This document shows, piece after piece, positions 38,487 through 62,876 of a stretch of DNA of 64,000 nucleotides. The stretch is from the IMG/VR virus record IMGVR_UViG_3300010396_000009, positions 1-64,000 of that record; one strand, 5' to 3'. This DNA comes from a virus. The number at the start of each line of letters is the position of its first letter. The stretch's first letter is position 1. A model generated the notes under the pieces. That model did no database searches. It was not told the DNA's origin and worked only from the letters and a program-made list of their open reading frames with translations. The position numbers and the translations under genes were made by a program.

Positions 38487-39566
38487 TTACGAGTAGAGTC
38501 CAGAGAACTCCAAGCCAGTGTTGAGGTTCGTGCCGGTGAGCTTGATCAAGCAGGCGGGTCGCGTGCACATATAGAGCACATTGCTCTGAACGTGCATCAT
38601 GATACCCTTGTCGAAGGGCAGCCTCTCCTGCTTCGCGTAGATCAGCTGACCGCGGGTATTGACCGTCTCGACGAAGTCGCCGGGAGCGACCACTTCAAGG
38701 AACAGGTCACGGGCGCCGGTCGGGAACGCGATCGCCTGCGTAGTCGGAATGAATCGCGTGGTTCCGACGAATCCGCGATAGTTCTCCCAGGACACATCAG
38801 CGAAGTTGAATCCACCTTCCTGAGAGCCGCCGGGGATCTGGGTCTCGCGCAAGAAGCTGTTCTGCTGATAGTACTCGTACGCCTTGCGGACGGTGCCGTG
38901 GTGCACGAAGTTGTCCCAGAACTGGTTCCCGCAGATCACCTTGACTCCGGTGAACGGGGTGTTACCGAGGGCGACCTGCATCTGGCGGATGAGACCCTGG
39001 GCGAGCATCTTCATGTCGACCGTCGGGTTCGGTAACGCGTATGTCCCCGCGTCCGTGAAGTCAACAGTAATGCTCGTCTGCGAGATGCCGAAGTCGGTGA
39101 AGAAGTTCTCGACCGTGGAGCCGTCAGCGTCCAGGATGACGCCCGTGAGAGCGCCGATGCGGTGGTACTCCCAGGTGACCTCCTGATTGGCCTTCATCTG
39201 CTCGAGGCGATCGTTGACGATCTGTGAGAAGACCTCGGTCTGGTCCTCGCTCCCGAAGGCTCGCTTGCCCTCCAGGTCCTCAGCGAGGAGCTCAAACCAC
39301 TGAGGCATGTGAGGCACCTGGAACGCTCGCTCCTTGCGGCGAGGTTGGTGCATCGTGTTCTGCAGCGAGGAGCCGCGAGTCTGGGTCTGAACCAGCTGCA
39401 GGATGCCCTGGCGCTCTTCGATGACTGCATGCCTTGTCGTAATCGGGCGCTGCTGGAACAGCCCCATTTCTCCGATTCGACCTGGCATATACGGCAGCTT
39501 GTCGATCGCCAGCGTAAGACTCTGCAAATCGAACGGCGAGCCGTCGAATATGTCTAAGAGGGCCAT
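38487..39566 (-). CDS. major capsid protein (lambda gpE-like family)
   Basis: SLTLAIDKLPY.PGRIGEMGLF, TWEYHRIGALTG, ETVNT.G..IYAK and QSN.L. Confidence 0.92.
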   Translation of the reverse strand: MALLDIFDGSPFDLQSLTLAIDKLPYMPGRIGEMGLFQQRPITTRHAVIEERQGILQLVQTQTRGSSLQNTMHQPRRKERAFQVPHMPQWFELLAEDLEGKRAFGSEDQTEVFSQIVNDRLEQMKANQEVTWEYHRIGALTGVILDADGSTVENFFTDFGISQTSITVDFTDAGTYALPNPTVDMKMLAQGLIRQMQVALGNTPFTGVKVICGNQFWDNFVHHGTVRKAYEYYQQNSFLRETQIPGGSQEGGFNFADVSWENYRGFVGTTRFIPTTQAIAFPTGARDLFLEVVAPGDFVETVNTRGQLIYAKQERLPFDKGIMMHVQSNVLYMCTRPACLIKLTGTNLNTGLEFSGLYS

Positions 39567-39629: not shown

Positions 39630-40196
39630 TTACGTCGTCTGCGTTCCGATCGCCGCGGCAGCGGGCTCGGTCAGCATGTCGATGGGCGGATTCAAGGCCT
39701 GCAGTGAGGTGATGATAGTCGCGGCGGTATACGCCACACCAGCGAGATCGGCAGCCTGAATCATTGATTGGTTGATCAGGGCGGGGCCACGAAACAAGAT
39801 CGGATACTTGGCCGCGGTGATTGCGTTATTTGCGAGCGCCTCGGGGATATTCTGCGAGTCATCGCCAAGAAAGAGACCGACGACCGAAGCCTCGTCGCCG
39901 GAGTTTGCGGCTGTCCACTGGGTGGCGACTTTCTTAAGCGGAAGCCCGGCCTGAATTGCCCCAGCCGCGATGGAAATGCCAGACGTGTTTTTGATCGTCT
40001 GAGCCGTTCTTGTGTAGAGCTGATTCGGCTCCCAGCGCACGAGCTCATACGGTCGCACCCGGTCAGTGATCGGCCCCTGAGCCACGGCACCCAGCATACC
40101 GAGCGCAAGGATCGCCTCGGAGTACTCCGGAAAAATTGCGCATGCCAGCGCCATGATCGCGATGATAGCCAGCGTGGGCAGAAGCGAAAATTTCAT
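39630..40196 (-). CDS. head decoration protein-like (start uncertain)
   Basis: Lies between protease and capsid; Ala/Gly-rich with an RGPALIN motif. Confidence 0.65.
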   Translation of the reverse strand: MKFSLLPTLAIIAIMALACAIFPEYSEAILALGMLGAVAQGPITDRVRPYELVRWEPNQLYTRTAQTIKNTSGISIAAGAIQAGLPLKKVATQWTAANSGDEASVVGLFLGDDSQNIPEALANNAITAAKYPILFRGPALINQSMIQAADLAGVAYTAATIITSLQALNPPIDMLTEPAAAAIGTQTT

Positions 40197-40245
40197 TTGT
40201 CGAGTCCCGTTTGTGAGTATAGAGTCGTGAGATCGAATTAAGCGT

Positions 40246-41541
40246 TTACGAATTTCGCCGATGACGGGCAGCGTGCTGTGCGGCTCGTCGCTCGGCGTCC
40301 TTGACGATGGACGGCGTGCCGTTGTCACCATGGTTAGGTGATTGCTGATGATTGGTTCGCTCTCCCGTCGAGGTGATCGGACTGTTCAGCGAGAGGGCTG
40401 CGACGATGTCGTCGAAGTCATCTCCTGTCTCGTTGGGATACATGGTCTCATGCGAGAGGGCGAAGGAAACGGCCTTCGGCGTCGCGTACTTTGCCTTGAG
40501 CTGCTTCATCACCGGGACCGAGATCTTCTTACTGGTCACGAGACCCAGGAGCTCTTGTTCGCGAGCCTTGACCAGGCGATTCTGAAGGGACTTCGGAACG
40601 TCGAAGCTCATGGCCGGGGGAGGCTCGTAATTGCGATCATGGGCTCTGTTGCGTCGCCCACCACCGAACTCATCACCCTCACCCTCGTCCTCGAAGACTT
40701 CAGGAGGAACCCCGGCGCCCATTCCCTCGGCCTCGGAGAGCTCCCCTTCCTCTTCCTCTTCCTCGAATTCAGGAAGCTCTTCTTCCTCACCCTCGCCGCC
40801 TTCGCCTTCACCTTCACCTGGAGGAGCGGAGTTGAAAGCTTGCTCGATGCACTCGCTGATCGCCTCGTCATCGGCCCCTTCGGGGCACTCAACTCCGAGC
40901 TTCTGAGCGAGATTAACAAGGGCCGGACTTGCCATATTATTTCCTTCTTCGTGATCGCAAGCGATGAATGAAAGCTCGATGCCTGATTGATTTGCTAACT
41001 GAGCCGCTACGTCAGAGAATTTACTCAGAGCTGGAACAACGGGATAATCCGTAATCGCCACGTGGCGAATTGGTCTAGCATAGCGCTTGCCGACGCCAGA
41101 CGTAAATTCATGCGGCATGAATAGGGAAACGTCGCTCTCCCTAAACTGCTCCTTGTATTCTGGCCTTCGCCATTTTATGTAGGCGAATAGCGCCGGCTGA
41201 CCTCGCCGATTTGGGTGCTCAGACGGCTCAACGGCCATCTTGACCACGGTGCCTCGACGGGCCTCGGGGTCAGTAGTGTGACCGATAGGAACTGGTACTG
41301 GGATGCCGTCATGGGCCATCTGATTGAACGTGCGCACCCAGTGCTCGAGCTGGAACTCATCGACGGGAAGCTCGAATTGAGTCTCCCCGTTATCATCTAC
41401 CTTGACAAAGGTTCCAGGGTACGCGAGCTCTTTTCTCGAGATAAGCTCAGGCTCATCGAGCCCGCAGGACGCGTCCACTGATAAGCAGACTGTCTTGGGA
41501 AGCTTTAGAAACCACTCAGTTCTGAGTCTATTTTTGGCCAT
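40246..41541 (-). CDS. Mu gpI-like prohead protease/scaffold
   Basis: PIGH, DVSLF and HVAITDYPVV motifs, followed by an acidic scaffold region. Confidence 0.8.
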   Translation of the reverse strand: MAKNRLRTEWFLKLPKTVCLSVDASCGLDEPELISRKELAYPGTFVKVDDNGETQFELPVDEFQLEHWVRTFNQMAHDGIPVPVPIGHTTDPEARRGTVVKMAVEPSEHPNRRGQPALFAYIKWRRPEYKEQFRESDVSLFMPHEFTSGVGKRYARPIRHVAITDYPVVPALSKFSDVAAQLANQSGIELSFIACDHEEGNNMASPALVNLAQKLGVECPEGADDEAISECIEQAFNSAPPGEGEGEGGEGEEEELPEFEEEEEEGELSEAEGMGAGVPPEVFEDEGEGDEFGGGRRNRAHDRNYEPPPAMSFDVPKSLQNRLVKAREQELLGLVTSKKISVPVMKQLKAKYATPKAVSFALSHETMYPNETGDDFDDIVAALSLNSPITSTGERTNHQQSPNHGDNGTPSIVKDAERRAAQHAARHRRNS

Positions 41542-41547
41542 GCTATG

Positions 41548-42237
41548 CTAAATATACCCTGTCACTAGTGCGCCCGCATTGAAACGAAATCCAGGGTCGA
41601 CGTCCGGAGTTCCGATGAACGGCCGAGTCTTAGCCAATCGAGAGCCAAATCTGATCGGCCTACAGCGACAGCGACAATTCCACCCATTCGGGGTGAAATA
41701 TGAGCGCCAGAACTTATGACGCTTGGGATACCTGACGCCGTGAAGAGCTCTGTGACTCTTCCTGGCGTCTATCTTGGCGACGTACTCAAAGCCCCAAATA
41801 CTGGGATCACTGTATCCCTGAATCCAGGTAGCCGCCGCATCAGCGATAGATGACTGAGTCCTGGCTACAGTCTGTATCAGAGACTTATCCTCGCCGTAGA
41901 CACCAATTCTAGTGAGGGCCCTGCGAATATACTGTAATCGCTTCGCCTCGGAGAGCTGTGAGGCTACTCGAATCGCCTTCAATAGATCAGCTCGCACGCG
42001 AGACATGTTCTCGTCTGTGATACTTCGCGCTATCGAGCGAAACATCTCAGTGGCAGCTATCCTTTGGCGCTTGGGAAGCGATCTGAAGACCTTGATGCCA
42101 TGATCCTGCGCCATCGCGAATACTTGGTGCTCGACTTCTGAGCAGTCGAGAGCATAGCCCACCGGATCAGAGGCCGCCTCCAGAGACCATGCGAAGTACC
42201 TGGAGGCGGCGATCGAAGATAGCTGATCTGGCGTCAT
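41548..42237 (-). CDS. MuF / SPP1 gp7-like minor head protein
   Basis: TVARTQ, RKSHRALHG, FW...PNGWNCRC and DPGFRFN. Confidence 0.92.
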   Translation of the reverse strand: MTPDQLSSIAASRYFAWSLEAASDPVGYALDCSEVEHQVFAMAQDHGIKVFRSLPKRQRIAATEMFRSIARSITDENMSRVRADLLKAIRVASQLSEAKRLQYIRRALTRIGVYGEDKSLIQTVARTQSSIADAAATWIQGYSDPSIWGFEYVAKIDARKSHRALHGVRYPKRHKFWRSYFTPNGWNCRCRCRPIRFGSRLAKTRPFIGTPDVDPGFRFNAGALVTGYI

Positions 42238-45220: not shown

Positions 45221-45223
45221 GAT

Positions 45224-48545: not shown

Positions 48546-49328
48546 TCAGGCAGCTCTAACGGCCTGCAGATCGGCATTAAGAGCTGTCATATCGATGGCG
48601 TTCGGTGCAGTGTTGTTCGTGAACCAACTTGGGGCGATAATCCCATAGGCCTCGTCGATATAGGCCTCCGCCGCTGCCGGAGTCATGTCAATCAGTGCGC
48701 CCCATGTCACGACCTTGAACTTGAGGGCTCCGCCCTGATCTATGTAACCCACGACGATGACAGCGTGACCACCCCATGAGCCCGGTTGATTCTGATGATT
48801 GGACAGCGGGCCATAGACGTCCCACACATTCTTGCCCTGCCATGCAGTCGGAAGCTGAATTCCGATGTAGGAGAACGCAAAGCAATAAATAGTCTGCTGA
48901 AACGTCGGCAAATCCAATTGACTGTTGCCGGCCTCGATAGAAGCGTAGGCTCCGATCTTATAGCCAGACAATCCAATTTTGGCCATGTAATTCATGACGT
49001 CAAGCTCATTACAGCCGTTGTCATTGCGACCAGTGCGCGGATCATAGCCGCTGATCGCCGAATACATGCCAATCACGTCAGCGTCAGACGGTGTAACGAT
49101 CGCGCCGTTATTGCCCGTCCAGACCTGAATACCGTGACCGAACCCAGCACATGTGCAGTCGCCAATACTATCATTGGCCATCGCTCCCCAGCTGATTCCC
49201 GGAGGCGTCCAGTCGACGATCGACGGCGCTGGCGGCAACCCTGGTGTCAAGTACCTTGCGAGCTTAAGCGTTCGCTCATCGATGCGCGGTGCGTGTTTCC
49301 CGAGCTTAACTTTTGTGTGATCAATCAC
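48546..49328 (-). CDS. papain-like (C1-type) cysteine peptidase
   Basis: GDCTCAG catalytic Cys, GGHAV His, VVTWG. Confidence 0.8.
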
Positions 49329-50209
49329 GGCGAGTACTTTCCAATGAGGGCGCGCATCTTATCGACTGTCTTTGGCATCTGCATATCGGCCGGCGTGATG
49401 TTTAGCCAATCTCCGGTCTGCAAGTTCTTTACGACCACAGTGGGGTATCCGCCGTTCGCGGCGATCTGCTTTGCGTAGAGCGTCTTAATCTGTCCGCCGT
49501 CTGATATGCTCTCAGAGTTGTACCACACCCACTTATGACCCTTGCCAAAGATCGAGTCCTTGGGAACCAGCGGACCTGAGCCAACAGCGAAGAATGGATC
49601 ACGGAGAATAGCACCAACAGCCTGCTGCTGGGGCAAATTATTGGTATCAGTGATAATGACAATGAGAAGCTTAGCAGCCGTGACCGGCGGATTAGGTCCT
49701 GGCCCTGGTCCTGGCCCTGGTCCTGGTCCTGGTTCATCACCAGGTGGCCCCTGCGGACCAGGGTCACCCTTAGGCCCCTGCGGTCCAGGTGGACCCTGCG
49801 GTCCAGGTGGACCTTGCGGTCCTGGTTTTCGCGCTGAGTCACTCTCTGTGACGGTAACAGTGCACTCGTTAGAGATTACGTCGCCGCCGTACGCCCTGAC
49901 GATGTACTCTCCCGGCACCATCGACCAGGCTAAGGTCTTAAGCGGCGCAGGGTTAAACTCCTCATCAAGGAGATTCAGATCATCAGAGTCATCTGACTTG
50001 ACCCAGTGAACCTTTGATAGGTTCGTAGTCGCCTCTAACTTGAGAATTTTCCCGGCAGCAATAGTGAGAGTCGATGGCACTACTATCGCAGGTCCGCCAT
50101 TGACGGGTTCGCCTCTGAGGCGACCCTTCGCCTTGATAGAAACCGGAGAATAAGCTCCGGCACAGCCGGTAATTACGAATAGCAGAAGTAGAGAAAGGAC
50201 GCGACTCAT
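49325..50209 (-). CDS. putative lipoprotein with collagen-like and (GP)n linker
   Basis: [10 protein letters not shown] lipobox-like signal, (GPQGPP)n and (GP)n, and a thioredoxin-like YPTVVV C-terminal domain. Confidence 0.7.
49695..49826 (-). repeat. coding tandem repeats (18-nt collagen unit, 12-nt Gly-Pro unit)
   Basis: Repeats of ggtccaggtggaccctgc and ggccctggtcct. Confidence 0.85.
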
Positions 50210-51266: not shown

Positions 51267-52664
51267 TTATATCGAGTTAATACTAGCATGCCCGTTTCTC
51301 TCAGCTCCGTTTCTCTTGGCCATGAGATATCGTTGCTTGCGACTGAGGCTAGCTCGCATGACGGCCTGACCAGGCTGTTTCTGGATGCCCTTCACCTCAG
51401 GCGCGCCGAGCTGCTCTCGAATAGCAGCCCAGTCTAGGTGAGCCTGCTCTTGAGCCTGCCCAGCCTCTGTTCCCCAGTGCTTCTCATAGAGTCCCTTGAT
51501 GAACGCTCGCTTCTCATCGACGAGCGGCGAAGCCGTGACCTTGACCTTGTCCACGTATCGAGGACCGTAATTCAGCTCAAGAAGAACATTGACCACCTGG
51601 CTATTCAGCAGGGCCATGATCTCCCTGTGAGTCATCTCCAGGTTATCGACCACGAAGTCAGCGTGTGCTTCGGCCTCTGCCTTGGTGCCGAATTGACCCT
51701 CCTGAATAGCTCGCTCAGGAAAGCCAAAGCCGCGGGCCTTTAGCACATCATGATACTTAAGGCGCTCGACGAAAGCGCCCTGCTGAGTCTGCGGTGATTG
51801 GAGCTCAACTCGCCATGCCGCGTTAGCTGGGTTGAAGTTATTCATATCATCCACCTGACCAAGGATAGAGCTCGGCACGGCGACCATGCCAGATGACTGC
51901 AGCGACTTGAGAATATTCGCCGCGATCACAGCATTATCTGTCTCACCAGTGACCGCTCCGGTGACGGGATCTTTCTGTATAGAGGTCCCCATTGGGTAAT
52001 AGACGATCCAGTGTGACCCTGCGATCTTGACGTCAAATCTCCTGGCCCCGTCATCGCACTCGAGCCAAGAGTCATAGGGTCTCTCGCACCTGCGCAAGAG
52101 CGGCTCGCTGTACCAGTTCGTGCCCTCAGCATCACGGTATAAGCAGGCGAAGTCGCCCCTGTACAGATAGACCGGGTTTGGGTTCAACACATTGTGAATT
52201 GCGCTGTTTCGCACGCCGACCATATTGCCATGATAGTCGACGAGAATAGTCGTAAGATCCTGAAGCAGTCCCTTAAATTTCTTCACGTAGAACATACCAG
52301 TGTCTTCGTGCTGCTCCTTCACTACTTCATACGGCTGCCAGCCGAAGTCCAGAAATCCTCGCAGAGCGTCGCGCAGAAACTGAATTCGAAAAGGGACAGT
52401 CGATTGCTTGATGCAGAGCTCGGCATCCTTGAACTCCTCATGCTCGCACTCGACTGTCCACTCGGAGCCAAGCAAGGCAGCCTGATATATGTCGCGAAGC
52501 AGTCCCAGCGTTGGATCGCGGCGCATGAGACGCACTTTGCGAAACCACTGAGAGGTGACTACCGGGTTGAGGGCCAGCACACCAGGTGGGACAAACCCAT
52601 CGGGACCAGCGCCGACGAGAATCTGGGCTACGGTCCTGGCTTGCTTTGGTTCTTTGTCAGCCAC
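51267..52664 (-). CDS. portal protein (Mu gp29/DUF935-like)
   Basis: Size and synteny; DALRGFLDFGWQPYEVV, EPLLR..Y..W and G..AEAEAH. Confidence 0.85.
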   Translation of the reverse strand: MADKEPKQARTVAQILVGAGPDGFVPPGVLALNPVVTSQWFRKVRLMRRDPTLGLLRDIYQAALLGSEWTVECEHEEFKDAELCIKQSTVPFRIQFLRDALRGFLDFGWQPYEVVKEQHEDTGMFYVKKFKGLLQDLTTILVDYHGNMVGVRNSAIHNVLNPNPVYLYRGDFACLYRDAEGTNWYSEPLLRRCERPYDSWLECDDGARRFDVKIAGSHWIVYYPMGTSIQKDPVTGAVTGETDNAVIAANILKSLQSSGMVAVPSSILGQVDDMNNFNPANAAWRVELQSPQTQQGAFVERLKYHDVLKARGFGFPERAIQEGQFGTKAEAEAHADFVVDNLEMTHREIMALLNSQVVNVLLELNYGPRYVDKVKVTASPLVDEKRAFIKGLYEKHWGTEAGQAQEQAHLDWAAIREQLGAPEVKGIQKQPGQAVMRASLSRKQRYLMAKRNGAERNGHASINSI

Positions 52665-54034
52665 TAGTCACCCTTGATCTCATGACCCTGGTTAAACGTC
52701 GCCGTTCCCACCTCGTGGGCGCCCCACTCCTGAGCTGCCCAGTGCTTGATCAGCTGCATCGTGTGCTCATCGCTGCACCGCACCGCTATGACGACCTTCG
52801 GCACGTCGAGGATCTTTCGAACGGCGACCTGAAGATCAACTCCGCCACGAGCAAATCTCTTCACGTCGCGAGAGAATTTCATACCGCGCTTCTCTGGGAG
52901 CGTGAACACGGCATTAAGGCCCATCGCCTCTCTTTGATGAGGTTTCACACGAGCGGTAGGCTCTAAAGGAGACATGTCACCTCTTGAGTTGAGCGCCCTG
53001 GCCTTGCTGCGCTTGGCGACGCCGTCGATAGAGTGCAGAACGGAGACATTATCGGTCTCGACGTTCACGAGCACCCACTGTCGCCTATCCTCTGGGTCTG
53101 GATTTGGATAGCGCTGAAGCTGCACCACCAGTTTGATGTCAGGGAAACCGTACTTCAGGTCCATTATCGAGTCGCGCATCTCGGCCGCATTGCCGGCGGG
53201 GACCACGTAGTGGGCCCTCGGAAGAACCTGGCGCTGGTGCTTGGCTGCACGAGCCTTGGCGAACCTATCCTTGGGCTCACCAGCTAGTGCTACTGAGCCC
53301 GGCAAGCTTTTTTTTCGCGCTGCTTTTGAGTCTTGAGAACCAAGAACGACGTTATCAACTAGGCTCAGCGAGAAGCTCGCGAATCGCCCTTGAGCGTCCC
53401 TCTCGTACTGCCGCTGGGAGACGTGGGTCTTCCCTTGGCGGTCGAGCGCCTCGTATCTCGTGCGAACCCCTGCATGATGATGCCAAAGCCTCTTGTGCTT
53501 TGCCGCGATTGCCTTGGTCCCCGGAAAAGTGCTCTTCTTGAACTTCTCGTAGCCAGAGCGGTGAACGTCCTCGTGCGTCTTGTGATGCTTAATGATATCC
53601 TTCACCGAGATCATGTTGTTCTCGGAGATCGGTGGAAGGTCGTTGTCTCGCCGCACCTGATTGCCGTATCCTCTGCTAAGATCGCTCTTTGTCCTCTTGA
53701 AGAGCCTGCCGCTCACCAGGTCCTTGGTGTACTGGATAGGGTGCATGACGGCCTGCTTCGTGTTCTTGATCGTCGCGGATACGAGCGGAGACACATCGCA
53801 CGCTACACCCTCCATGGAGAGCGCGTAGAGCTGCTTCCTGGTCAGTGGGCGACCCTGCTCAGCGAGCGAAAGGTAATACGAGGCGGCTCGGCTGATCGGC
53901 TTTCGTCGGCGACCTTTTCGCTTTACCTTGTAGGGCAATTTTTTCCCCTTCGGAGTCTTTTTCTCGAACTCGTGGGCGATCTCGGGATGATGAATGTGCA
54001 TGTAGGCTCGCTGCGCCTGAGATACAAAAGGCAT
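52664..54034 (-). CDS. modular basic head-associated protein (start MPFVSQ at 54034)
   Basis: TAATG coupling to TerL, an MPFxSQAQR N-terminal module, an RDAQGRF motif and two C-terminal alpha/beta modules. Confidence 0.7.
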   Translation of the reverse strand: MPFVSQAQRAYMHIHHPEIAHEFEKKTPKGKKLPYKVKRKGRRRKPISRAASYYLSLAEQGRPLTRKQLYALSMEGVACDVSPLVSATIKNTKQAVMHPIQYTKDLVSGRLFKRTKSDLSRGYGNQVRRDNDLPPISENNMISVKDIIKHHKTHEDVHRSGYEKFKKSTFPGTKAIAAKHKRLWHHHAGVRTRYEALDRQGKTHVSQRQYERDAQGRFASFSLSLVDNVVLGSQDSKAARKKSLPGSVALAGEPKDRFAKARAAKHQRQVLPRAHYVVPAGNAAEMRDSIMDLKYGFPDIKLVVQLQRYPNPDPEDRRQWVLVNVETDNVSVLHSIDGVAKRSKARALNSRGDMSPLEPTARVKPHQREAMGLNAVFTLPEKRGMKFSRDVKRFARGGVDLQVAVRKILDVPKVVIAVRCSDEHTMQLIKHWAAQEWGAHEVGTATFNQGHEIKGD

Positions 54035-55344
54035 TATGCCGCTCCCACCAAAACACTCGGAACCACGTCGCTCGTAGGAACAACTGGCCACACTCGATGA
54101 ATAATATACCCAAGGGCGTCAGTGATGTGACCAATGTCATCATGATCATCGACGTCGCGACTGCCGGGCTCATATGCCCTGGTCACCAGATCATGAAGCA
54201 GCCATTTGCACCGGGGATCAACGAAGACTCGTCGCTCTCCCAGGGCGTTGCAGAAGGACGCATTGCATGCCGAGAACCGCTCATGAATCGCGGGGTTCTT
54301 CGCAGGATAGAAGATCTTCTTTCTAAGGAAACGCTGATCATTCTGGATATGTGCATAGTCGCTCTGAACAGCGCTAGTCTTCCTGGCCTTGGATGACGCA
54401 TCGCCGAAGAAGATCCAGCCTGATTGGTGCACACTTGGCCTATTATAGCGCTTATCTAATTCATTTAACGCAGCCGGCGTGTTAGTGTTGCGAATCCAGA
54501 TCTCGTCGATGACATTGAGCTTCGGCCTAGACGTCGTGTGCTGCTGGCAGATGACCCACGCCATAGGGTCTACGTTGAAGTCAGATCCGATGATCAGTGG
54601 CTTACTTGGGTCATACTTTGCTGATTCTATGTTAAGCTTCTCATCGAACGCGTAGAACACCAGCCCAGATGTTCCCTGCCAGATGGCCCCGAACTGCTCG
54701 TCAAAATCCTTCTGATCAAGACTTCTGGCGGCGTCAGCTATTTCCTCCTCGCTCAGGATGTCAGCGCTTGGCCAGGTATAGCTCTCGTATCTCGGGCCAA
54801 GCTTTCCAGAACCGTAGTCCTCCCAGCACTTCTTGAACTCGGAGGCACCTGGTCCAAACCGCTTGGGAACACCGATACGCCAACACCAGCCAGTTTTATG
54901 AGATAACGTCGGGCGAACCGAGCGATCGAACGAGCCGGGCCATTGATCGCACGATTCATCGATGACCCCGCCGTCCCACTGAACGCCCTCGATTCTAGCC
55001 GGCTCATTCATGCCGACGAGGAAGAGCTTAGATCCGAAGCGAGTCTTGATCGTCAGATCACTCTCGCGTATGTCATCAGGCGAGGCTATCCACTCCTTTG
55101 GAATCAGGGCCTTGATCTTCTCCCAGGCGACTAATTTAGCCTGCGCCCTAGTGGGATACGCCAGGAAATAGATCGGATCAGGCCAGGGCTTCTTAACCGG
55201 GAGAAACCTTACCAGTCGTCGCCTAGATAGCTCCGTCTTGCCAGAGCCTCGGCCGCAAGCCAGCGCGACGAAGCGCGCCTTGGTGCGCCACACCCTAGTC
55301 TGAGCCGGGTGATAGCGAAGCGGAAACCAAGCCGGGGTGAGCAT
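54034..55344 (-). CDS. terL: terminase large subunit
   Basis: GRGSGKT Walker A, VIDE Walker B, GSDFN and HITDALGY nuclease motifs. Confidence 0.95.
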   Translation of the reverse strand: MLTPAWFPLRYHPAQTRVWRTKARFVALACGRGSGKTELSRRRLVRFLPVKKPWPDPIYFLAYPTRAQAKLVAWEKIKALIPKEWIASPDDIRESDLTIKTRFGSKLFLVGMNEPARIEGVQWDGGVIDESCDQWPGSFDRSVRPTLSHKTGWCWRIGVPKRFGPGASEFKKCWEDYGSGKLGPRYESYTWPSADILSEEEIADAARSLDQKDFDEQFGAIWQGTSGLVFYAFDEKLNIESAKYDPSKPLIIGSDFNVDPMAWVICQQHTTSRPKLNVIDEIWIRNTNTPAALNELDKRYNRPSVHQSGWIFFGDASSKARKTSAVQSDYAHIQNDQRFLRKKIFYPAKNPAIHERFSACNASFCNALGERRVFVDPRCKWLLHDLVTRAYEPGSRDVDDHDDIGHITDALGYIIHRVWPVVPTSDVVPSVLVGAA

Positions 55345-55805
55345 TACTTCGCCTTAAGTTGCTCTCTTAAGGCTTTGTACCGCTTCATCCGTTCAGGTCG
55401 CACAGGGTGCAGTGACTGCAGATCCTGGATCGCCAAGGCGACCTCGCGACCAACGCCTCGCCCGGGATCAAGCATCAGGTCATGGCTCATCTTGATGAGG
55501 TCCTTGACCACGTGAACTCCCTCGGTCGGAGCGAACATCTCACCGAAGAAAGAGTCAAAGATGAGCTGCTGAAACTGCAGGACCTTTTCCCTGCGCCCGG
55601 TCACGGCGATCTTGCAGTCGGCGTAAAGCTTCGCATCCAGGCCGTGCTCCTTGGCTAGTTTGAGCGCCGGCTCGATGTTGTCCCGCTGATTCACGGAGAT
55701 GATCTTCGTGAACTGATCATCGGCGCTGTCCATGGCCAGGGAGAAGTCCCGGCGCACCTGACCACGGCGAAGCATTCGATTAGCTGCTTTGAGCATGGGA
55801 TTCAT
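55344..55805 (-). CDS. hypothetical protein with one copy of the repeat module
   Basis: IISVNQRDNIEPALKLAKEHGLDAKLYADCKIAVTG; coupled to TerL. Confidence 0.65.
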   Translation of the reverse strand: MNPMLKAANRMLRRGQVRRDFSLAMDSADDQFTKIISVNQRDNIEPALKLAKEHGLDAKLYADCKIAVTGRREKVLQFQQLIFDSFFGEMFAPTEGVHVVKDLIKMSHDLMLDPGRGVGREVALAIQDLQSLHPVRPERMKRYKALREQLKAK

Positions 55806-58800
55806 TCTGAAGCACCTTTACGTTAATGGCGTTATTCTGCTCAGCGATTTTCTTTACCAATTCGGGATCGCTGGTAAGCACCAGGACCCGGTCGTTGTCC
55901 TTCTTCTGACCCTTGATTCCGTTCTCCCTGAGCTCCGTCAAGAATTTACCCAGAAGGTATGCGTTGGCCGCGAACGCTACGACCATGTAGGTCAGATGGG
56001 CGGCTCCCTTGACTGCTGCAGGGAAAGCTAGCTCATGCGAAGCAGCTGCCTCCTTGACCAATTTTTTAACTCTCGCGGTCCTGGCTCGTCGCTTGGCGAT
56101 CTTCTCAATTTTCTCTGGTGAGCCCTGCGCCACGACCTCGCCGTTAGGCTTTACTTTTGCCAAGATTCCGCTGGAGATCAGGTCAGCCGCGACCGTAGTC
56201 GCCACGTACGGCCCCACATCCTTGATAAGCCACCAGCCGACACCCTTCAGGAACGGCAGGGCTGCGATGGCGGGGAAGGCCATTTCTTTGCCCTTCTTTT
56301 TCTTCATCTCCTTGATTTTGCCATGGAGCGGCTTCTCGAGGTTAGTCACCGGGGGTTTCTTCTTGGGTTTCTGGACAGGGACTCCGCCGTTTGACACCAC
56401 AGCTGCTCGCTGCTGAGCCTTCGGCATTACCTTTGAGGCGGGCTTAGGCGCAGGTTTAGGCGCAGCGATAGGGGCCGGCGCAGCTCGCCTCACAGGCCGC
56501 TTCTTTGTAACTCCGCTCTTAAGAATCTTGCCTCGAAAAGCCGCGACGACGGCGTCTAATAAGCGCATCAGGGCGGCTCTCACCACCACGTGCACCCTGC
56601 CGTAGCCATCGGCGAACGAGTCAAAGATCCCGGCCTTGGCGAGCCATCGCATGGCCGCGGTCGCCCCGACGATACCGCCAAAGTCAATGATCAGCTCATG
56701 AAACACGTCGCCAATCGGTTTCTCGTGGAAGTTAGGATCAGTGCGCCGCGGGATCGGACCGGTTTCTTCATGTGGCGTGAACGCGCTGGGTTGCACCCCT
56801 GGACCAGCGCCGGGCGCCTGGTGCTTAGATCCAAATGTTCCAGTGGCCGTCGGATGCCTGGTGATAATTCCGCCGGCGGCAAATTCATTGACGGCAGGCT
56901 CGATGTCAGAGCCCTTGACACCCAGCACGACGATCTTCTTACCCTTCATGTACAGGTTCTGGAGCGGCTTGAAGTGATACTTGTTCACCAGCTGCTGGTA
57001 CGCCGCCTTGGCCGAGGCGACGCTCTTGCAGTCAAACTCCCAATTCATCGGGGACTCTTCGGCCATGAATGAGGCGGCCTTGACCTGGCCGCTGTGCTCG
57101 TCAATGATCTCCTTGACCTGATTCTCCTTGCTCGGGTCAGTGGTCTGGGCGAAGATCTTGTTGCCGATCACCTTCGCCTGGACACCCAGCTTCTTGATCA
57201 GCTGATACGCCCCGACTGCCAGAGCCCCGGTGGCGAACGTGGCGGTGATCGCCAAGAGCGCCTCACCCTTGGTCCTGGGGATGAAGCCCTTCACACCCTG
57301 CCGGGATGCCTCCTTGACAGCGCCCGGCAGGGCGCGGGCTATTCTCCCGACCTTGCCGGGCATAGAGCCTACTGTTTCTTTTGCATGCTTGGCTCCCTTG
57401 CCAAGCTTTTGCAGCTTGACCCTGGTCTCGTGCGGCAGCATGTCATGCACCATACTAGAGGGCAGGAACTCGGTGCCCGGAAGCACCATTCGCACCCCGG
57501 CCTCGAATTTTCTGTCCATCTCCTTAAAGATTCGCCCCATGATCGCGTCCGTTTTCTCTGTGGCCTTGCACAGGATGCTCTTTTCGCCGTTGCGACGAGC
57601 GGCGAGTCCCTTCGATCTGAGATAGGCGAGGCCAGCGGCGACCGCGAGCGAATTGGCGAAGACAAACTCGACCACTTCTGCCGGACCAAGACCCATCGCA
57701 TATGACATCGCCACGTCCACCCTGGCCCCGCATCGCTGAGCGTAGCGACGCACAGCCTCCTGTCCTCGGTCGCCGTAGGCCCGAATCTTGATCTTTCGCT
57801 TCTGCATGCCGCGACCGAGCGAGGAGAGGATCTCGCAGCCGAAGCCGCGCAATTTTTGAGCGAGCCACCCAACGTACTTCGGACTCACGGACGAGAGCAC
57901 GAATTCGTAAGCCCGACCCATGTCCATCTGGAACGACGCCGCGACCTGAGATGAATTAGTCGGCTCCATCTTGCCGCCATACTTTTTGGTGATCTCCTTC
58001 ACCTCGGTCTTCTTGTCGCCGCGAAGCTTCTTCACCAAGACATAGGCGCCGTACGCGGCAGCCGAGATACCAGCGGCTGTCAGGGCAACAAGGGCTGCAG
58101 ACGCCGCAGCATTGGCACCGAACTTTAGAAGCATGGAGCCGATCGCCATATCAGCGGCGTCTTGGCCGGACTTAAATGCCTTTGCTCTTGTGTTCTCGTG
58201 AGCGAACTTCATCACACCGACCTGGCCGAAGTCGGGCGGGATCGGCGAGCCCTTGAACTCCTGCACGCACTTGTTGATAACTCGGCGCTCTCCAGTAGCG
58301 GTGAGCTTATGTGAGTGAGGAAACGGTCGCTTCACCTTGACACCGTTCTTGCGGAGCCACAGAGACGCCTCGTCTGCCAGGTCCTCGCCCTCAAAGTAGA
58401 GCTGCATTGCCTCTACGCCGCTGTTCCGATCCTTGGCGCCGGGCTCTGTGGGTTCACTTGAGTTTGGCCTGTACGCACTCTGCTGCTGGGCTGGCATCTG
58501 CATAGGAGGAATCACCACTCCGTTTCCGTTCACCCCTGAGGGATAATTGCGTCGCATCATCTGCTTCTCATCATAAAGCGCCATCATTGCGTCAACCATG
58601 CTCATCCCCCTCATCCCGCCGTAGTTAAATGGTCGGCCGACATCGCGCATCTCATGGATCTTCTTGCTCGGCCGAAAATGCACATAGAAAGTCTCGGGCT
58701 TGAAGACGTCGTCCTTGGTCCTGGGATTCTTCTTCCACGCAGATTTTCTTCTGCGCATCTCAAAGATGCCGAAGTTCCGGAGCTCAACTCGCTGACCGTT

Positions 58801-59979
58801 TAATAGCGCCAGCGCGATCTTATCAAGGACAGCAGAGACAACTGGCCTTGTGCGCGCCTGTGCAAAGCCGAGCTCTTCAGAGATAGCAAGGTACAAAGCG
58901 CGCTTAGTCAAGGTCGAGCCAGCGACGGAAACGTCGAAGTCCATGCTAATCGGCGTAAGCGATGCAGCGTACCTCAAGCCAGGTGGTTCAACGACCTTAT
59001 AGTGAATAATGCCCATCTTATGAAGCTCTTGCATCACCTTGTCATGAATGAGAAGATGCACCACGGAGGGACTAGCATGCGGATCTTTTTTCCACATCTC
59101 AGTCGCTATTGGCTTCAGATGTTTCTTGTACAGCTTTGTTATCAGCTTAGCGATTTTCTCTGAATCTTGAGGATAGTTAGGTCCAGGTTTGGCCAGGTGA
59201 GAGACACCCTTATGATTAACTGCCTCGATCGACCTAACTCCGGGCCAGCCGACGAAAACTTGAATATCCTGGGTGCTGAATGTGCCGCCGGCTCTCTTAG
59301 AGTTACTGGGGTGATTATGAATTATCGCGTACTTATTCTTCTTGTCTATGGCGCCAGGAACACTTAAGTGTACGCGTCCCTTGCTGCCGTCGAACCTATG
59401 AATCACGTCTCCCTCATGATTCACTATGACCGAGTGTTCCTTTTCGCTTTTCTTGCCCTTTCTGAGCACGCTTTGCCTAGCTTTGTTTGCACCCTCAGTA
59501 AAGTGATTCTTGAATCCACTAATAGAGTGCTCAAATGCGAACGCCGGCCACTGTCCAGTCATGTTCCCGGTCATGTCTCTTCGCCTGTCGGGAAACCTCA
59601 TATTTCTCTTATAGGCTCTCTTGCGAGCCTGGATCGCCGGGTCAGGGTTCTCGATGGGGCTTATGGCGCTCCCAGTGCAGCAGGGTTCGCCAGTGTTCTG
59701 CACAGTCGAGTCTATAACATGCGTCACCTTCCCCTTATACGCCTTAACAGCCTGGCGAAGAAATGAGATAAAGGTCTCATGCGAGTGCATGTATCGCGGG
59801 GCACCTTCAGAACGATCCGGCATACGAATGTGAAGCTCGAGCTCGCGCTCAGAGACCCTGTCCATTTTCAGGGGAGCCGTACCAGCGATCTTAGCCTGCA
59901 TCCAGTCGATGAACTGCTTAAGAGCGCCCGGTGACCTGAATATCATGGTCAGGTGAATCGGCAGCTCGTGAGTCTTCAT
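55780..59979 (-). CDS. 1399-aa modular protein: JAB/MPN-like domain, HU/IHF domain and about 10 small alpha/beta repeats
   Basis: HNHPS...FSTQD; LTKRAL...VELRNFGIFE.RRRK...KNPRT...FRPSK; repeated F..A...L...G modules. Confidence 0.85.
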   Translation of the reverse strand: MKTHELPIHLTMIFRSPGALKQFIDWMQAKIAGTAPLKMDRVSERELELHIRMPDRSEGAPRYMHSHETFISFLRQAVKAYKGKVTHVIDSTVQNTGEPCCTGSAISPIENPDPAIQARKRAYKRNMRFPDRRRDMTGNMTGQWPAFAFEHSISGFKNHFTEGANKARQSVLRKGKKSEKEHSVIVNHEGDVIHRFDGSKGRVHLSVPGAIDKKNKYAIIHNHPSNSKRAGGTFSTQDIQVFVGWPGVRSIEAVNHKGVSHLAKPGPNYPQDSEKIAKLITKLYKKHLKPIATEMWKKDPHASPSVVHLLIHDKVMQELHKMGIIHYKVVEPPGLRYAASLTPISMDFDVSVAGSTLTKRALYLAISEELGFAQARTRPVVSAVLDKIALALLNGQRVELRNFGIFEMRRRKSAWKKNPRTKDDVFKPETFYVHFRPSKKIHEMRDVGRPFNYGGMRGMSMVDAMMALYDEKQMMRRNYPSGVNGNGVVIPPMQMPAQQQSAYRPNSSEPTEPGAKDRNSGVEAMQLYFEGEDLADEASLWLRKNGVKVKRPFPHSHKLTATGERRVINKCVQEFKGSPIPPDFGQVGVMKFAHENTRAKAFKSGQDAADMAIGSMLLKFGANAAASAALVALTAAGISAAAYGAYVLVKKLRGDKKTEVKEITKKYGGKMEPTNSSQVAASFQMDMGRAYEFVLSSVSPKYVGWLAQKLRGFGCEILSSLGRGMQKRKIKIRAYGDRGQEAVRRYAQRCGARVDVAMSYAMGLGPAEVVEFVFANSLAVAAGLAYLRSKGLAARRNGEKSILCKATEKTDAIMGRIFKEMDRKFEAGVRMVLPGTEFLPSSMVHDMLPHETRVKLQKLGKGAKHAKETVGSMPGKVGRIARALPGAVKEASRQGVKGFIPRTKGEALLAITATFATGALAVGAYQLIKKLGVQAKVIGNKIFAQTTDPSKENQVKEIIDEHSGQVKAASFMAEESPMNWEFDCKSVASAKAAYQQLVNKYHFKPLQNLYMKGKKIVVLGVKGSDIEPAVNEFAAGGIITRHPTATGTFGSKHQAPGAGPGVQPSAFTPHEETGPIPRRTDPNFHEKPIGDVFHELIIDFGGIVGATAAMRWLAKAGIFDSFADGYGRVHVVVRAALMRLLDAVVAAFRGKILKSGVTKKRPVRRAAPAPIAAPKPAPKPASKVMPKAQQRAAVVSNGGVPVQKPKKKPPVTNLEKPLHGKIKEMKKKKGKEMAFPAIAALPFLKGVGWWLIKDVGPYVATTVAADLISSGILAKVKPNGEVVAQGSPEKIEKIAKRRARTARVKKLVKEAAASHELAFPAAVKGAAHLTYMVVAFAANAYLLGKFLTELRENGIKGQKKDNDRVLVLTSDPELVKKIAEQNNAINVKVLQNESHAQSS

Positions 59980-59984
59980 AAGTG

Positions 59985-60352
59985 GAATATACCTAAGTGA
60001 CAGAGACTAGTGAACGCCTAAGCAATTCACTAGTCTCTGGAACTCAGCCGGTGTTAGCTCATGTACAAAGAGCCGCGGCTCAATTACTTTGCTCTAGACA
60101 AGAGGTCAGGGAATTTTATCGACCTTCGCTTCACCCTCCCGGCATCGTGAGTCAAGTGTATAAAATAGCCTCTCGGCGGATCAGAGGGCCGAGGCCTGGT
60201 GGCCCTTCCATGAATTACCGCTTTGGTTCTTTCACCGGGCGCCCATCCTACCAGCAGATGAGAACTAGTGACCTGGATGATTAGGTCGCTACCCAGCGAG
60301 GGATTTACTGTTTTACCGGCTCTCGCCTTTACCGGTCGGGCAACGTCTGTTC
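59985..60352 (-). ncRNA. candidate structured non-coding RNA
   Basis: About 370-nt gap in a tightly packed operon, with a series of hairpins, minus-strand G-U pairs, GAGA tetraloops and a perfect 14-bp stem at 60001-60039. Confidence 0.5.
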
Positions 60353-60751
60353 CTAACTCTGCGCTAGCACCATCCTTACCTTGCACGCGGCTGTGTTGCT
60401 CCTTCCGTAAATCGCGACGCTGGGAGCCCACGGAAACAGCGCAGGGAGCCCGGCATTGCCGTTGCTTCCCGGATAGAGCCGGGCAAACGGGTAAAAAGTC
60501 GCCGAGACAACTAATCCAAGGTCACAGTAGTTCGCCTGGTCCAAGTTCTGGAACTTGACCATCCCCTCCTGACCGCTCGTCACGGCGCCGATCGGAATCA
60601 GAGTTCCGCCGGACGTCGTGGGAATAGAGACGATGTCCGGGTGCGACACAGGACCGTTCGCCTGATTGGCCTGCATCGACGTGGGCCAGGACTCGATCAG
60701 AGGCGGATTGTTGATCTGCAGGTTCGCTGTTATCGTAAGCTCGTTGGCCAC
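60353..60751 (-). CDS. hypothetical beta-rich (putative structural) protein
   Basis: GGAGG SD and a GTG start abutting the upstream stop. Confidence 0.65.
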   Translation of the reverse strand: MANELTITANLQINNPPLIESWPTSMQANQANGPVSHPDIVSIPTTSGGTLIPIGAVTSGQEGMVKFQNLDQANYCDLGLVVSATFYPFARLYPGSNGNAGLPALFPWAPSVAIYGRSNTAACKVRMVLAQS

Positions 60752-61111
60752 TTATACCTCCTGTATAGAAAAATCTAACTGATGAAACGCAGAGTCCTTC
60801 GAGCCGCGGCCGCGCCCCTGAGCTTTCTTGCCTCCAGGGAGAAGCCTCTGTCGTAACATCCGAGTTACTTCTCGGATGTTACTCCTGGTCATCAGCTTAT
60901 AGGTGACCCTGAGCGTACTATCTGATTGTATCTTCCCAGCGAAGCCCATGCTCGCCAATATACCGGCGATCTGCTTGTCCTGAGCAGGGTCTTCCGTAAA
61001 CCAGGATATGACATAGCTGTGATCAGTGGGTGCATACCGACGACCGGACGTGTCATGGGCCTGGTATGGCTCGTACTTGTAGGGCTCGCCGGGTATTGAC
61101 TTTCGCGGCAT
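60752..61111 (-). CDS. hypothetical protein with one copy of the repeat module
   Basis: ISWFTEDPAQDKQIAGILASMGFAGKIQSDSTLRVTY. Confidence 0.6.
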   Translation of the reverse strand: MPRKSIPGEPYKYEPYQAHDTSGRRYAPTDHSYVISWFTEDPAQDKQIAGILASMGFAGKIQSDSTLRVTYKLMTRSNIREVTRMLRQRLLPGGKKAQGRGRGSKDSAFHQLDFSIQEV

Positions 61112-61474
61112 TTATTTCTTCGGCTGTGATGATGCCAGCTTAGATTCGATGAGAGCCAGGATCTGCTGCTTCTGGTCCTCGGTGAAGCCCTTGGGCGCGG
61201 GTGCAGCGGTGACTTCTGGCCAGTGCCAGCTCATTGGACGCTGCGCGGTCTGATCCTCTGGGATCCCCTGAATGCCGGGCGACGGTCCGCCCATTGGGTC
61301 CCAAAGTCCGATATTAAGCAATGTACCGTCCTTGGCCGGGTCAGAGCGATGGGCTCCCGGCGGATGAACGTATGTGACTATCGCAGGAACATGTTCCGGG
61401 CTGTTGGGGTACAGGCGAACGTGGATGATGCGACCGATTGTGGGAGTTTGAGACATTGACATAGGACCTTTCAA
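61112..61474 (-). CDS. hypothetical phage protein
   Basis: PTIGRIIH...PAIVT...WHWP pattern. Confidence 0.7.
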   Translation of the reverse strand: MKGPMSMSQTPTIGRIIHVRLYPNSPEHVPAIVTYVHPPGAHRSDPAKDGTLLNIGLWDPMGGPSPGIQGIPEDQTAQRPMSWHWPEVTAAPAPKGFTEDQKQQILALIESKLASSQPKK

Positions 61475-61920
61475 TTATAGAGATCTACTACTCGAGTACC
61501 TACTACGTGCTTTCCATCTGGGCCGCGTATATCAAACTCTATCTTCTTGGTGTGGCTATGAGCCCAGTGACGGATAAAAGACTCTGCGTACTGCATCCCG
61601 GACGCTGTGCACTCTACGTAGATGCTCTCATCCACCGTTAAGTCATATATTCTTATGAAGCTGTGAACGAAGGCCTCGCTCATGGCAAAGCCCCGCTTAT
61701 CGAAATTTTTTGGTGTCTTCTTGGGCAGCTTGATAAGACCCATCTTTATCAGAGTCTCCCCATGATCATCACCATGACAGCTGATCCAGCTGCCTGATGG
61801 AGTTAACCATCCTGAGTCAGTGCCGATGCTCACACCGCTAAGCGATACCTCACGCTGCTTAATAGCAGACATTACTCTGCGATGCTTATAATACTGCTGA
61901 TGCCGCGAGAAGCCAGACAT
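61471..61920 (-). CDS. hypothetical protein
   Basis: GWLTPSG....H motif; packed operon. Confidence 0.6.
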   Translation of the reverse strand: MSGFSRHQQYYKHRRVMSAIKQREVSLSGVSIGTDSGWLTPSGSWISCHGDDHGETLIKMGLIKLPKKTPKNFDKRGFAMSEAFVHSFIRIYDLTVDESIYVECTASGMQYAESFIRHWAHSHTKKIEFDIRGPDGKHVVGTRVVDLYN

Positions 61921-61922: not shown

Positions 61923-62876
61923 TTAAAGTGTTACTCCGGTTACTCGACGAACGACGTGGCTGTAGGACATCTTATGATCACAGCTATTACAGTTCGGCAA
62001 ATCGCGCCTCTTGTCCTGCAGATGGGCGCGGTAGCGAAACATGATCTCTGAGTTCCATACCTGATCAATAGTTTGATGATTCAAATCACCGATGAATACC
62101 GCATCGTCCTGTGTCTGGTCAATCGCGCAGCAGAGCGGCACTCGCCCATCATATTGGATGACGAGATGTCGATGCGGCCTGGCGCAGTGCGTCTGCGGGG
62201 CGCTTGCGGCGTGTCCCTTTGAGTGGAAGCTGTCGAACGAGTGAGCGTTCTCTGGGCGATCACTGCGCATGTCACTGATGCAAAGAAAGCGACCGCGAGA
62301 ATTATGACGGCGATACTTATGATCAGTACGACACCACAGATCATGAGCTCGCCCAGTGCTGTCAATGCTCTCATACAGTTCCTTCTGCTTGATCCCGGCA
62401 TCACCAAGATCATAGATGTTTAGGTTGATCACGTTGACGCCAGAGTCAAAGATATCGGTGATCCGGTCAACCATCGCTATTATTTGGTCTCGCGGGCCTC
62501 TGGTGATCGTGTCTCCGTTCGTCGAGACATAGATAGTGCAGTCAGGGCAAGCTCGGCGAAGACGCATAGCCCAGCTAGAATCATCAGACGAAAACAGTCG
62601 CTTGTCAAGAGTAGGCTCGTTTAGTAAAAACAATTGGATGCATCCATCGAACTGATGCTCGCGCAGCTGATCACAGATGCTCGTGAACAGCTCCTCGCTC
62701 ATCAATTTTTGATTGGGCCTGGGAATGTCACCACCGAATCCGCTGATGGGACAGAAACTGCAGCGTCGATTGCAGTAGGCGCTCGTCTCAATACTGAAGC
62801 GATTTGGCCAGGGATAGAACTCCCCTTTTGAGAAGTCCACCGGCGGCTCGTGCATCACGTCGAAAAATGAAGCCAT
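61923..62876 (-). CDS. radical SAM/SPASM protein
   Basis: CNRRCSFC and NEP; SPASM-type C..P.....IQYDG.V..CC...GDL...W...CNSC. Confidence 0.9.
   Translation of the reverse strand: MASFFDVMHEPPVDFSKGEFYPWPNRFSIETSAYCNRRCSFCPISGFGGDIPRPNQKLMSEELFTSICDQLREHQFDGCIQLFLLNEPTLDKRLFSSDDSSWAMRLRRACPDCTIYVSTNGDTITRGPRDQIIAMVDRITDIFDSGVNVINLNIYDLGDAGIKQKELYESIDSTGRAHDLWCRTDHKYRRHNSRGRFLCISDMRSDRPENAHSFDSFHSKGHAASAPQTHCARPHRHLVIQYDGRVPLCCAIDQTQDDAVFIGDLNHQTIDQVWNSEIMFRYRAHLQDKRRDLPNCNSCDHKMSYSHVVRRVTGVTL

Follow-up and report, generated by a model that had tools for sequence, protein, structure and literature searches.

In bacteriophage T4, the ADP-ribosyltransferase (ART) Alt is packaged together with the internal proteins IPI-III, and gp21 cleaves them; the head and ejection proteins of phiKZ and SPN3US are cut by gp175 and gp245. 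Cleavage in T4 and phiKZ takes place after glutamate, at the short motifs L/I-x-E and S/A/G-x-E. We know of no extra cargo polyprotein in Mu or in the herpesviruses. The present analysis concerns a 64,000-nucleotide stretch of viral DNA (positions 1 to 64,000 of IMG/VR record IMGVR_UViG_3300010396_000009, referred to below as the window) and, within it, the gene for a basic protein of 1399 amino acids (aa), P0001, whose modules appear to be joined by a short tag, A-[A/M]-S-[F/Y]. This tag also occurs in the putative prohead protease-scaffold protein of the phage and in a second basic protein, of 456 aa. In our judgement, the chances are even that P0001 is a capsid-cargo polyprotein, of the kind termed 'polyvalent proteins', which the prohead protease would cut at the tags; the 456-aa protein is probably also a cargo polyprotein.

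As in T4 with IPI-III, Alt and gp21, basic or enzymatic cargo is here predicted to be paired with short motifs and a protease of the same fold. The tag, however, differs from the sites of T4 and phiKZ, which are cut after glutamate, and the format differs from that of T4, in which separate cargo genes have one or a few sites: about ten modules make up the 1399-aa chain, and up to 2.9 thousand aa are spread over two open reading frames (ORFs) in the related phage G003. Also unlike T4 and phiKZ, the phage has a 75-kb genome, a lambda-gpE-type capsid, and a portal, MuF protein and protease of Mu type, and it is known from sequence alone.

Polyvalent proteins of phages and conjugative elements offer a second comparison. 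Iyer, Burroughs, Anand, de Souza and Aravind (2017) proposed that these proteins are delivered with the DNA and that their domains are released by proteolysis (PMC5512222). The giant proteins described here are similarly large and multidomain, their domains are shuffled between relatives, and ART domains are found in some of those relatives. Whereas that article proposes autoprocessing by embedded zincin-type peptidases (PMC5512222), no embedded peptidase was verified in the giants; they instead have a border tag shared with the prohead protease-scaffold protein, and most of their modules are small and basic and match no known family. In the article, searched by terms, no mention of a conserved inter-domain tag was found (PMC5512222).

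An exhaustive profile search with aa 445-1399 of P0001 found only five proteins: P0002 (1832 aa), P0005 and P0006 (622 aa each), and the short P0003 and P0004, which are 90-100% identical to P0001. The sites and domains of P0001 are as follows, an arrow marking the putative break after a tag.

55780..59979, minus strand: P0001, 1399-aa modular basic protein (pI 10.0), candidate cargo polyprotein
59533..59547, minus strand: PAFAF, aa 145-149, after an N-terminal module shared with P0002; a site of the loose motif discussed below
59266..59319, minus strand: HNHPSNS...STQD string, aa 221-238, a JAB/MPN-like metal-binding motif by eye only
58936..58971, minus strand: YAASL (aa 337-341) and ISMDF (aa 344-348), directly before the HU domain
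58651..58911, minus strand: HU/IHF-type DNA-binding domain, aa 357-443 (Pfam PF00216, E 8.3e-17)
58597..58611, minus strand: RGMSM, aa 457-461, after the HU domain; a loose-motif site, not independently supported
58204..58218, minus strand: GVMKF, aa 588-592, 9 aa past the end of a conserved LYFEG module
57931..57942, minus strand: core tag AASF, aa 680-683 (QVAASF, aa 678-683, in the context QVAASF↓QMD), a match to A[AM]S[FY]
57700..57711, minus strand: core tag AMSY, aa 757-760 (VAMSY, aa 756-760, in the context VAMSY↓AMG), aligned with EASY↓AM in P0002
57067..57078, minus strand: core tag AASF, aa 968-971 (VKAASF, aa 966-971, in the context VKAASF↓MAEE), aligned with AAASF in P0002
56275..56289, minus strand: KEMAF (aa 1231-1235) in KEMAF↓PA, before a hydrophobic hairpin module
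56023..56037, minus strand: HELAF (aa 1315-1319) in HELAF↓PA, before the last hydrophobic module; aligned with EMAL↓PA in P0002

Profile scans of P0001 detected one family, HU, which spans positions 1-87 of the 90 in the profile and scores 61.7 bits against a curated cut-off of 22.4; no peptidase or other effector domain was verified by these scans. All eleven predicted fragments between the tags are basic (pI 8.75-10.6). Linkers cannot be defined from structure in this protein, because a single-sequence AlphaFold model of aa 1-1200 reached a mean predicted local distance difference test (pLDDT) score of only 35.6.

Further giants came to light in phages related through the 431-aa protease-scaffold protein, an alignment of whose homologs was used to retrieve 46 IMG/VR loci. 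Among the five longest related records, two have P0001 homologs directly upstream of the gene for the large terminase subunit (TerL): G001 (78.6 kb, with terminal repeats) encodes one giant ORF of ~1390 aa, P0053, and G003 (65 kb) encodes two consecutive ones, P0054 (1578 aa) and P0055 (1330 aa). Counting the window phage, three phages thus have a giant gene directly upstream of TerL. The giants all contain an HU domain, share a few other modules and differ elsewhere, and their high-scoring segment pairs (HSPs) are both collinear and non-collinear; the region aa 150-340 of P0001 is unique among them. Relatives of P0001 were found neither in the GenBank phage collection (tblastn), nor among near-length proteins (word-indexed search), nor by direct search of IMG/VR, and those of P0002 were absent from IMG/VR and from JGI metagenome contigs. 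A search with an alignment of the LYFEG module recovered G003 only.

Like T4 Alt, the first G003 giant is linked to ADP-ribosylation: in addition to its HU domain, P0054 (L054, 676-5412) has three tandem ART domains, each of which ends in ...VRVPYAF. The same protein (L054, 676-5412) has three copies of a module of about 95 aa that ends in RRMGAAMGY or RRMGYAF. Its ART region also matches PHROG 595, 'head maturation protease', at positions 362-498, a match which suggests that ART domains are fused to head proteases elsewhere.

The initial annotation of the window had proposed that the linkers of head-region proteins share a short hydrophobic-S/A-F/L motif, and all of the strings it quoted are present, in every protein named. 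Its test pattern, [ALMV][SAD][FLM], was counted against expectations from composition shuffles. In the eight proteins claimed to carry it, a set chosen post hoc after the motif had been seen, there are 47 occurrences against 26.4 expected (z 4.25), and in the other 78 proteins there are 145 against 150. Taken protein by protein, p ranges from 0.003 to 0.05, and local shuffles give p of 0.03-0.05. Regular expressions with a fixed following residue (P1') were weakly enriched in P0001 or not at all, and hits defined by regular expression are not significantly nearer to module borders than random sites. The motif as first written is too loose.

P0001 alone served to define a narrower core, A[AM]S[FY], and has three matches to it (AASF twice, AMSY once) where 0.08 are expected. 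In six homologous giants of other phages there are five matches against 0.37 expected, a count reached by none of 3000 shuffles. Genome-wide, the core totals five, those outside P0001 being PPAMSF in the protease-scaffold protein and RAASY in the 456-aa protein; in the remaining 19,919 aa of the phage there are none (0.82 expected), and 48.5 thousand aa of control ORFs from related phages contain three (2.3 expected). An unbiased scan of the six other giants with a reduced alphabet returned aliphatic-small-aromatic-small ('hsas') as the top well-populated 4-mer (21 against 6.7 expected, z 5.6).

Could the tag be a product of chance, a short hydrophobic-small-aromatic pattern picked by eye from alanine-rich basic proteins? 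The modest per-protein p values of the loose pattern and its indifference to module borders would fit this, as would the outcome for several sites of the initial annotation: RASLS at the portal C-terminus is not conserved in relatives, AWSL at the MuF N-terminus is weakly conserved or not at all, and for DFSL (55344..55805), QLDF (60752..61111) and EVSL (61471..61920) in three small ORFs no supporting evidence was found. The core 4-mer, however, which was trained on P0001, is about 14-fold enriched in independent giants and does not occur in the remainder of the proteome; alignments across junctions keep it; and it forms part of a 12-residue tag, RDxxGxF-A-S/G-F, which was found only in the cargo-slot proteins of three phages. 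We regard chance as a highly improbable explanation.

The position of the tags provides the second line of evidence. The ten sites named in the initial annotation lie at a mean distance of 12.7 aa from seven independently defined borders, namely the ends of BLAST HSPs and the envelope of the Pfam HU match (p = 7e-5), so that its placement of the motif at the domain junctions of P0001 is upheld for the named sites and the core, though not for the loose regular expression. The HU domains of four giants have the loose motif on both sides in 4/4 cases, 9-40 aa away (joint chance 0.002). The P0005 ORF starts just past the point that corresponds to AMSY in P0001, and the HSP between the two proteins ends at aa 967, before KAASF. 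The G003 giant is split into two ORFs at a tag: the first ends in ...GGDMSYVR before its stop, and the second opens with the next module. Where BLAST HSPs cross junctions, the tag is kept in alignments that are otherwise 29-42% identical, as in the following four.

P0001 ISMDF↓DV, with P0002 IAFDF↓DV
P0001 VAMSY↓AM, with P0002 VEASY↓AM
P0001 KAASF↓M, with P0002 AAASF↓G
P0001 KEMAF↓PA, with P0002 AEMAL↓PA and FSMAL↓P, P0053 GASY↓AF and P0006 KELAL↓D

Further evidence comes from the protein that would do the cutting.

40246..41541, minus strand: prohead protease-scaffold fusion, 431 aa, assigned from its homologs, PF10123 in its family and an AlphaFold2 (AF2) model
40987..41460, minus strand: protease domain, aa 28-185, with invariant H88, S139 and H160 and fold matches
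40966..40980, minus strand: IELSF, aa 188-192, in a disordered linker that immediately follows the protease domain; consensus in the family [FY]ELS[LFM]
40603..40620, minus strand: PPAMSF, aa 308-313, at the end of a disordered acidic linker, before the helical scaffold; consensus PP-[AS]-[ML]-[SAG]-F
40387..40473, minus strand: AVSFALS (aa 357-363), within a predicted helix, and AALSL (aa 381-385), where a helix ends, both conserved in the family

The 431-aa protein has 46 homologs. It has no Pfam or PHROG match itself; PF10123 (Mu-like prophage I protein) matches 16 of 32 aligned homologs, with a best E of 2.5e-7. No relatives were found in representative bacterial genomes. An AF2 model built on the 32-sequence alignment has a mean pLDDT of 74.7 and comprises a confident domain (aa 28-179, above 90), a disordered segment (aa 180-198), a small helical domain, a disordered acidic linker (aa 246-312) and a helical scaffold. 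When the modelled protease domain was compared with VIA-align, it matched the varicella-zoster virus protease (Z 9.9, root-mean-square deviation (rmsd) 3.2 over 115 aa), the pseudorabies virus pUL26N assemblin (Z 9.4) and T4 gp21 (Z 8.2, rmsd 3.2 over 111 aa), and Foldseek gave probabilities of up to 0.99, for the Epstein-Barr virus and human cytomegalovirus proteases. In the sequence alignment, H88, S139 and H160 are invariant in the 32 homologs, and their order, His-Ser-His, is that of the assemblins. By its model, the 431-aa protein is a protease with the fold shared by Mu gpI, T4 gp21 and the herpesvirus assemblins, fused to a scaffold.

Herpesvirus protease-scaffold fusions are cut at an R-site after the protease and at an M-site near the scaffold C-terminus, the sites having the form (V/L/I)-x-A↓S or ↓T, with YLQA-T and VQA-S as examples from pseudorabies virus (PMC4498786). 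Like herpesvirus UL26 and Mu gpI/gpZ, the 431-aa protein is modelled as an N-terminal Ser/His/His-type protease followed by a linker and a scaffold (Z 9.4-9.9 for the herpesvirus proteases), and the position of IELSF is analogous to that of the R-site. The tag can be read in two ways: like a herpesvirus site (A-A↓S-F), with the scissile bond before the serine as in the x-A↓S sites, or with the cut following the aromatic residue. A literature search on the cleavage rule of Mu gpI found nothing. For the initial annotation, which had placed the motif just after the catalytic domain and through the scaffold, two sites hold up well: IELSF and PPAMSF are conserved in the family and lie in disordered linkers that bound the protease and scaffold domains, and they count in favour of cleavage by the prohead protease. 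AVSFALS and AALSL, which fall at predicted helices, are less likely or uncertain as cleavage sites.

There is also a hint that scaffold and cargo sites vary together. The scaffold site of G003 is GVAF↓G, and its giants are rich in x-A-[FY] (17 against 9.3 expected) and not in x-S-[FY]; that of G001 is PMSL↓S, and its giant is rich in x-S-[FY] (9 against 1.8 expected).

Alternatively, the tag may be an uncut linker or a docking element, such as a short strand that closes a module or a peptide that binds the scaffold, the capsid interior or the portal. The giant would then remain intact, like the N4 virion RNA polymerase (vRNAP) or T7 gp16, or would be a membrane protein of the infected cell. 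Many tags do follow one type of module, with its ...G-G-K-V... end, two of the four scaffold-protein sites lie in or at predicted helices, and polyvalent proteins of the kind of N4 vRNAP are packaged without being processed (PMC5512222). P0001 also has several hydrophobic segments (maximum KD19 1.3-1.8), which speak against packaged cargo in that they could mean a membrane protein of the infected cell. Yet tags stand before as well as after unrelated domains (HU, ART, hydrophobic hairpins), and the spacing varies, being 9-40 aa for HU; the ORF starts and splits of the relatives coincide with tags; and the two best scaffold-protein sites occupy disordered linkers, where protease-scaffold fusions are known to be cut (PMC4498786). 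We consider an uncut tag rather unlikely.

The case for cut cargo extends to the 456-aa protein, which is encoded between TerL and the portal.

52664..54034, minus strand: 456-aa basic protein in a variable slot between TerL and the portal, second candidate cargo protein
53933..54034, minus strand: conserved N-terminal peptide MPFVSQAQRAYMHIHHPEIA..., shared with other cargo N-termini
53876..53890, minus strand: RAASY, a core tag that closes the N-terminal peptide and matches A[AM]S[FY]
53372..53401, minus strand: RDAQGRF-ASF, an instance of the 12-residue tag, whose extended form Y-x-R-D-x-x-G-(R/K/Q)-F-A-(S/G)-F is seen again only in the cargo-slot proteins of G001 and G003

The peptide MPFVSQAQRAYMHIHHPEIA also forms the N-terminus of P0053, P0054 and P0057, and in every copy a basic run comes next, and after it AASY, AAAY or AMAF; phrog_1375 matches aa 13-50 of P0054. 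With its closing tag, this peptide, which P0001 does not have, resembles a capsid targeting sequence of the T4 type. The 12-residue tag, [YH]-x-R-D-x-x-G-[RKQE]-[FW]-A-[SG]-F, occurs in the TerL-portal slot proteins of the window phage, G001 and G003 and in the G001 giant, and was found nowhere else in the genomes of the window phage and the relatives compared. It runs straight into the A-S/G-F motif and so links the two signals; a literature search on RDxxGRF strings returned no paper describing them. The motif strings that the initial annotation reported between the modules of 52664..54034 (YLSL, YALSM, FASFSLSL) are present; the protein is a candidate for cargo, with its RAASY and RDAQGRF-ASF tags. 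In G001, G002 (complete, 66 kb) and G003, the slot likewise encodes variable basic proteins. These are repeat-rich and differ in every related phage (L059-L062 of G002, 9420-12365; L055 of G001, 10445-12772; L063 of G003, 10689-13796), and those of G001 and G003 contain repeated KY(K/Q)RDxxG(R/K/Q)F-A-(S/G)-F tags.

If the tags are cut, another enzyme might cut them, or at another time: a host protease, the JAB-like region of P0001, a papain-like protein, or some activity after ejection. P0001 contains HNHPSNS...STQD, part of a JAB-like HNHPSNSKRAGGTFSTQD that was read by eye (an E...HxH...S..D pattern) and whose language-model neighbours, Prok-JAB (0.80-0.85) and DUF4329, are weak leads; a 260-aa protein (48546-49328, minus strand) has GDCTCAG... 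and, by eye, a papain-like Cys/His pattern; and autoprocessing of polyvalent proteins by embedded peptidases is proposed by Iyer et al. (PMC5512222). The JAB-like region, however, has no Pfam match at E<=10 and no PDB sequence match, and it is missing from P0002, P0053, P0054 and P0055, which carry the same tags. The 260-aa protein matches PHROG 19005 (unknown function, E 8.7e-29), has no Pfam match and has no homolog in G001-G003; since G001 and G003 both have giants, its gene was set aside as a common processing enzyme. The prohead protease is the only peptidase found alike in the window phage, G001 and G003, and it carries the tag at its own domain ends. We regard processing by another enzyme or at another time as improbable.

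Several observations weigh against P0001 as a polyprotein cut by the prohead protease. Scaffold sites exist independently of cargo, since G002 and ten smaller relatives have protease-scaffold sites and no giant; nor was an HU domain found in those ten. A position weight matrix (PWM) built from the scaffold-family sites is not enriched in P0001 (10 observed against 7.9 expected), so that the identity of the scaffold and cargo motifs depends mainly on the PPAMSF-type site. Because many tags follow one module type (a hydrophobic helix and ...GGKV...), the module's own consensus could account for some of the signal. The motif is short, and in its loose version it shows hardly any enrichment when local composition is taken into account; the co-variation of scaffold and cargo sites is based on two or three phages only. 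P0001 lacks both the N-terminal peptide and the RDxxGRF tag of the other cargo proteins, which leaves its own route into the capsid unexplained. Lastly, we infer the cleavage of P0001, the protease responsible, its packaging and its ejection from sequence and models.

P0001 nevertheless remains our candidate for a polyprotein cut by the prohead protease, because the tag is restricted to P0001, the protease-scaffold protein and the 456-aa protein, marks module borders, and is conserved in relatives that have different cassettes. The initial annotation had reached the same reading. What endures of it is the tag itself, at borders, conserved, present in the protease linkers and separating basic fragments; what does not is the motif as written, and half of the proteins it listed.

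The first 64 kb of a 75,231-bp contig make up the window; the contig's 124-bp terminal overlap indicates a phage genome that is complete and circularly permuted. One public DNA sequencing run contains the stretch, a soil metagenome that is probably its source, and no RNA run was listed among the public sequencing runs containing it; the phage is uncultured. All annotated genes are on the minus strand. In order of transcription, a radical-SAM/SPASM gene (61923-62876), four small ORFs, P0001, a 153-aa ORF, TerL, the 456-aa protein and the portal are followed by about 9 kb of fibre-like and other genes and then by MuF, the 431-aa protein, a small protein and the major capsid protein. The 3' end of the P0001 gene overlaps the 153-aa ORF, which abuts the large terminase gene, and the order MuF, protease-scaffold, small protein, major capsid protein is kept in relatives.

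55344..55805, minus strand: 153-aa ORF between the giant gene and TerL, with no family and no homolog in relatives
54034..55344, minus strand: large terminase subunit (PHROG 2, E 4.8e-30; tblastn matches to 1004 phage records)
51267..52664, minus strand: portal protein, Mu type (Pfam PF06074, E 1.9e-9)
41548..42237, minus strand: MuF-type minor head protein (Pfam PF04233, E 5.7e-11)
38487..39566, minus strand: major capsid protein, lambda gpE type (Pfam PF03864, E 9.6e-81)

The ORF after the protease-scaffold gene (39630-40331, minus strand) overlaps it by 86 nt as listed. Its true start is probably internal, since its homologs are only ~150 aa long and align from aa 83 on; the product is likely a small protein of the head, such as a decoration protein. 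A gene located between portal and MuF (49325-50209, minus strand) encodes a lipoprotein-type signal, then collagen-like GPQGPP repeats and a run of Gly-Pro, and has weak tail-fibre PHROG matches; the head module is thus interrupted by fibre-like genes. The same interval encodes two Gly/Ala/Thr-rich proteins of 482 and 502 aa (43712-46672, minus strand), which have no family match and have partial homologs in G001-G003. An S-adenosylmethionine (SAM)-dependent methyltransferase (47812-48516, minus strand) begins with a signal-like hydrophobic peptide, MKAFLIPLLLTIAYPALA. The radical-SAM/SPASM protein (61923-62876, minus strand), whose gene immediately precedes the small ORFs upstream of the giant gene, is without a homolog in the G001-G003 proteomes.

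Taken as a mechanism, a P0001-type chain would be a string of small, unrelated and swappable modules joined by A-[A/M]-S-[F/Y] and a small residue: an HU-type DNA-binding domain, several hydrophobic-helix modules, small alpha/beta modules and, in relatives, ART domains. Such polyproteins would be made late, together with the packaging proteins, and would enter the procapsid, the 456-aa protein and the giants of the relatives perhaps by means of the N-terminal peptide and the RDxxGRF-type tag. The prohead protease would cut them at the tags while processing itself and the scaffold, and about ten or eleven basic fragments would stay with the DNA or leave with it on ejection.

A broader and more tentative proposal, to which we give somewhat less than an even chance, is that in this small clade of soil phages the prohead protease 'reads' a cassette system, in which any module placed between tags may be packaged as part of a chain, cut free and delivered. 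The same scheme would cover HU, membrane-inserting hairpins and ADP-ribosyltransferases, and the flavour of scaffold and cargo sites would co-evolve. Were this true, it would constitute a general and swappable format for capsid-cargo delivery outside the world of T4 and the jumbo phages, and packaged HU could condense or bend the injected DNA.

If the tags are indeed cut, a mid-sized siphophage would carry in its head, for every copy of the polyprotein, about ten additional small proteins, including a DNA-bending HU, membrane-active pieces and, in relatives, ADP-ribosylating enzymes. The processed cargo of T4 and phiKZ would then have a counterpart in phages with a Mu-type protease and a lambda-type capsid, under another cleavage rule and in the format of a cassette polyprotein. 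The tag would offer a rule, at the level of sequence, by which injected effectors could be found in metagenomic phages, and possibly a handle for loading foreign proteins into capsids.

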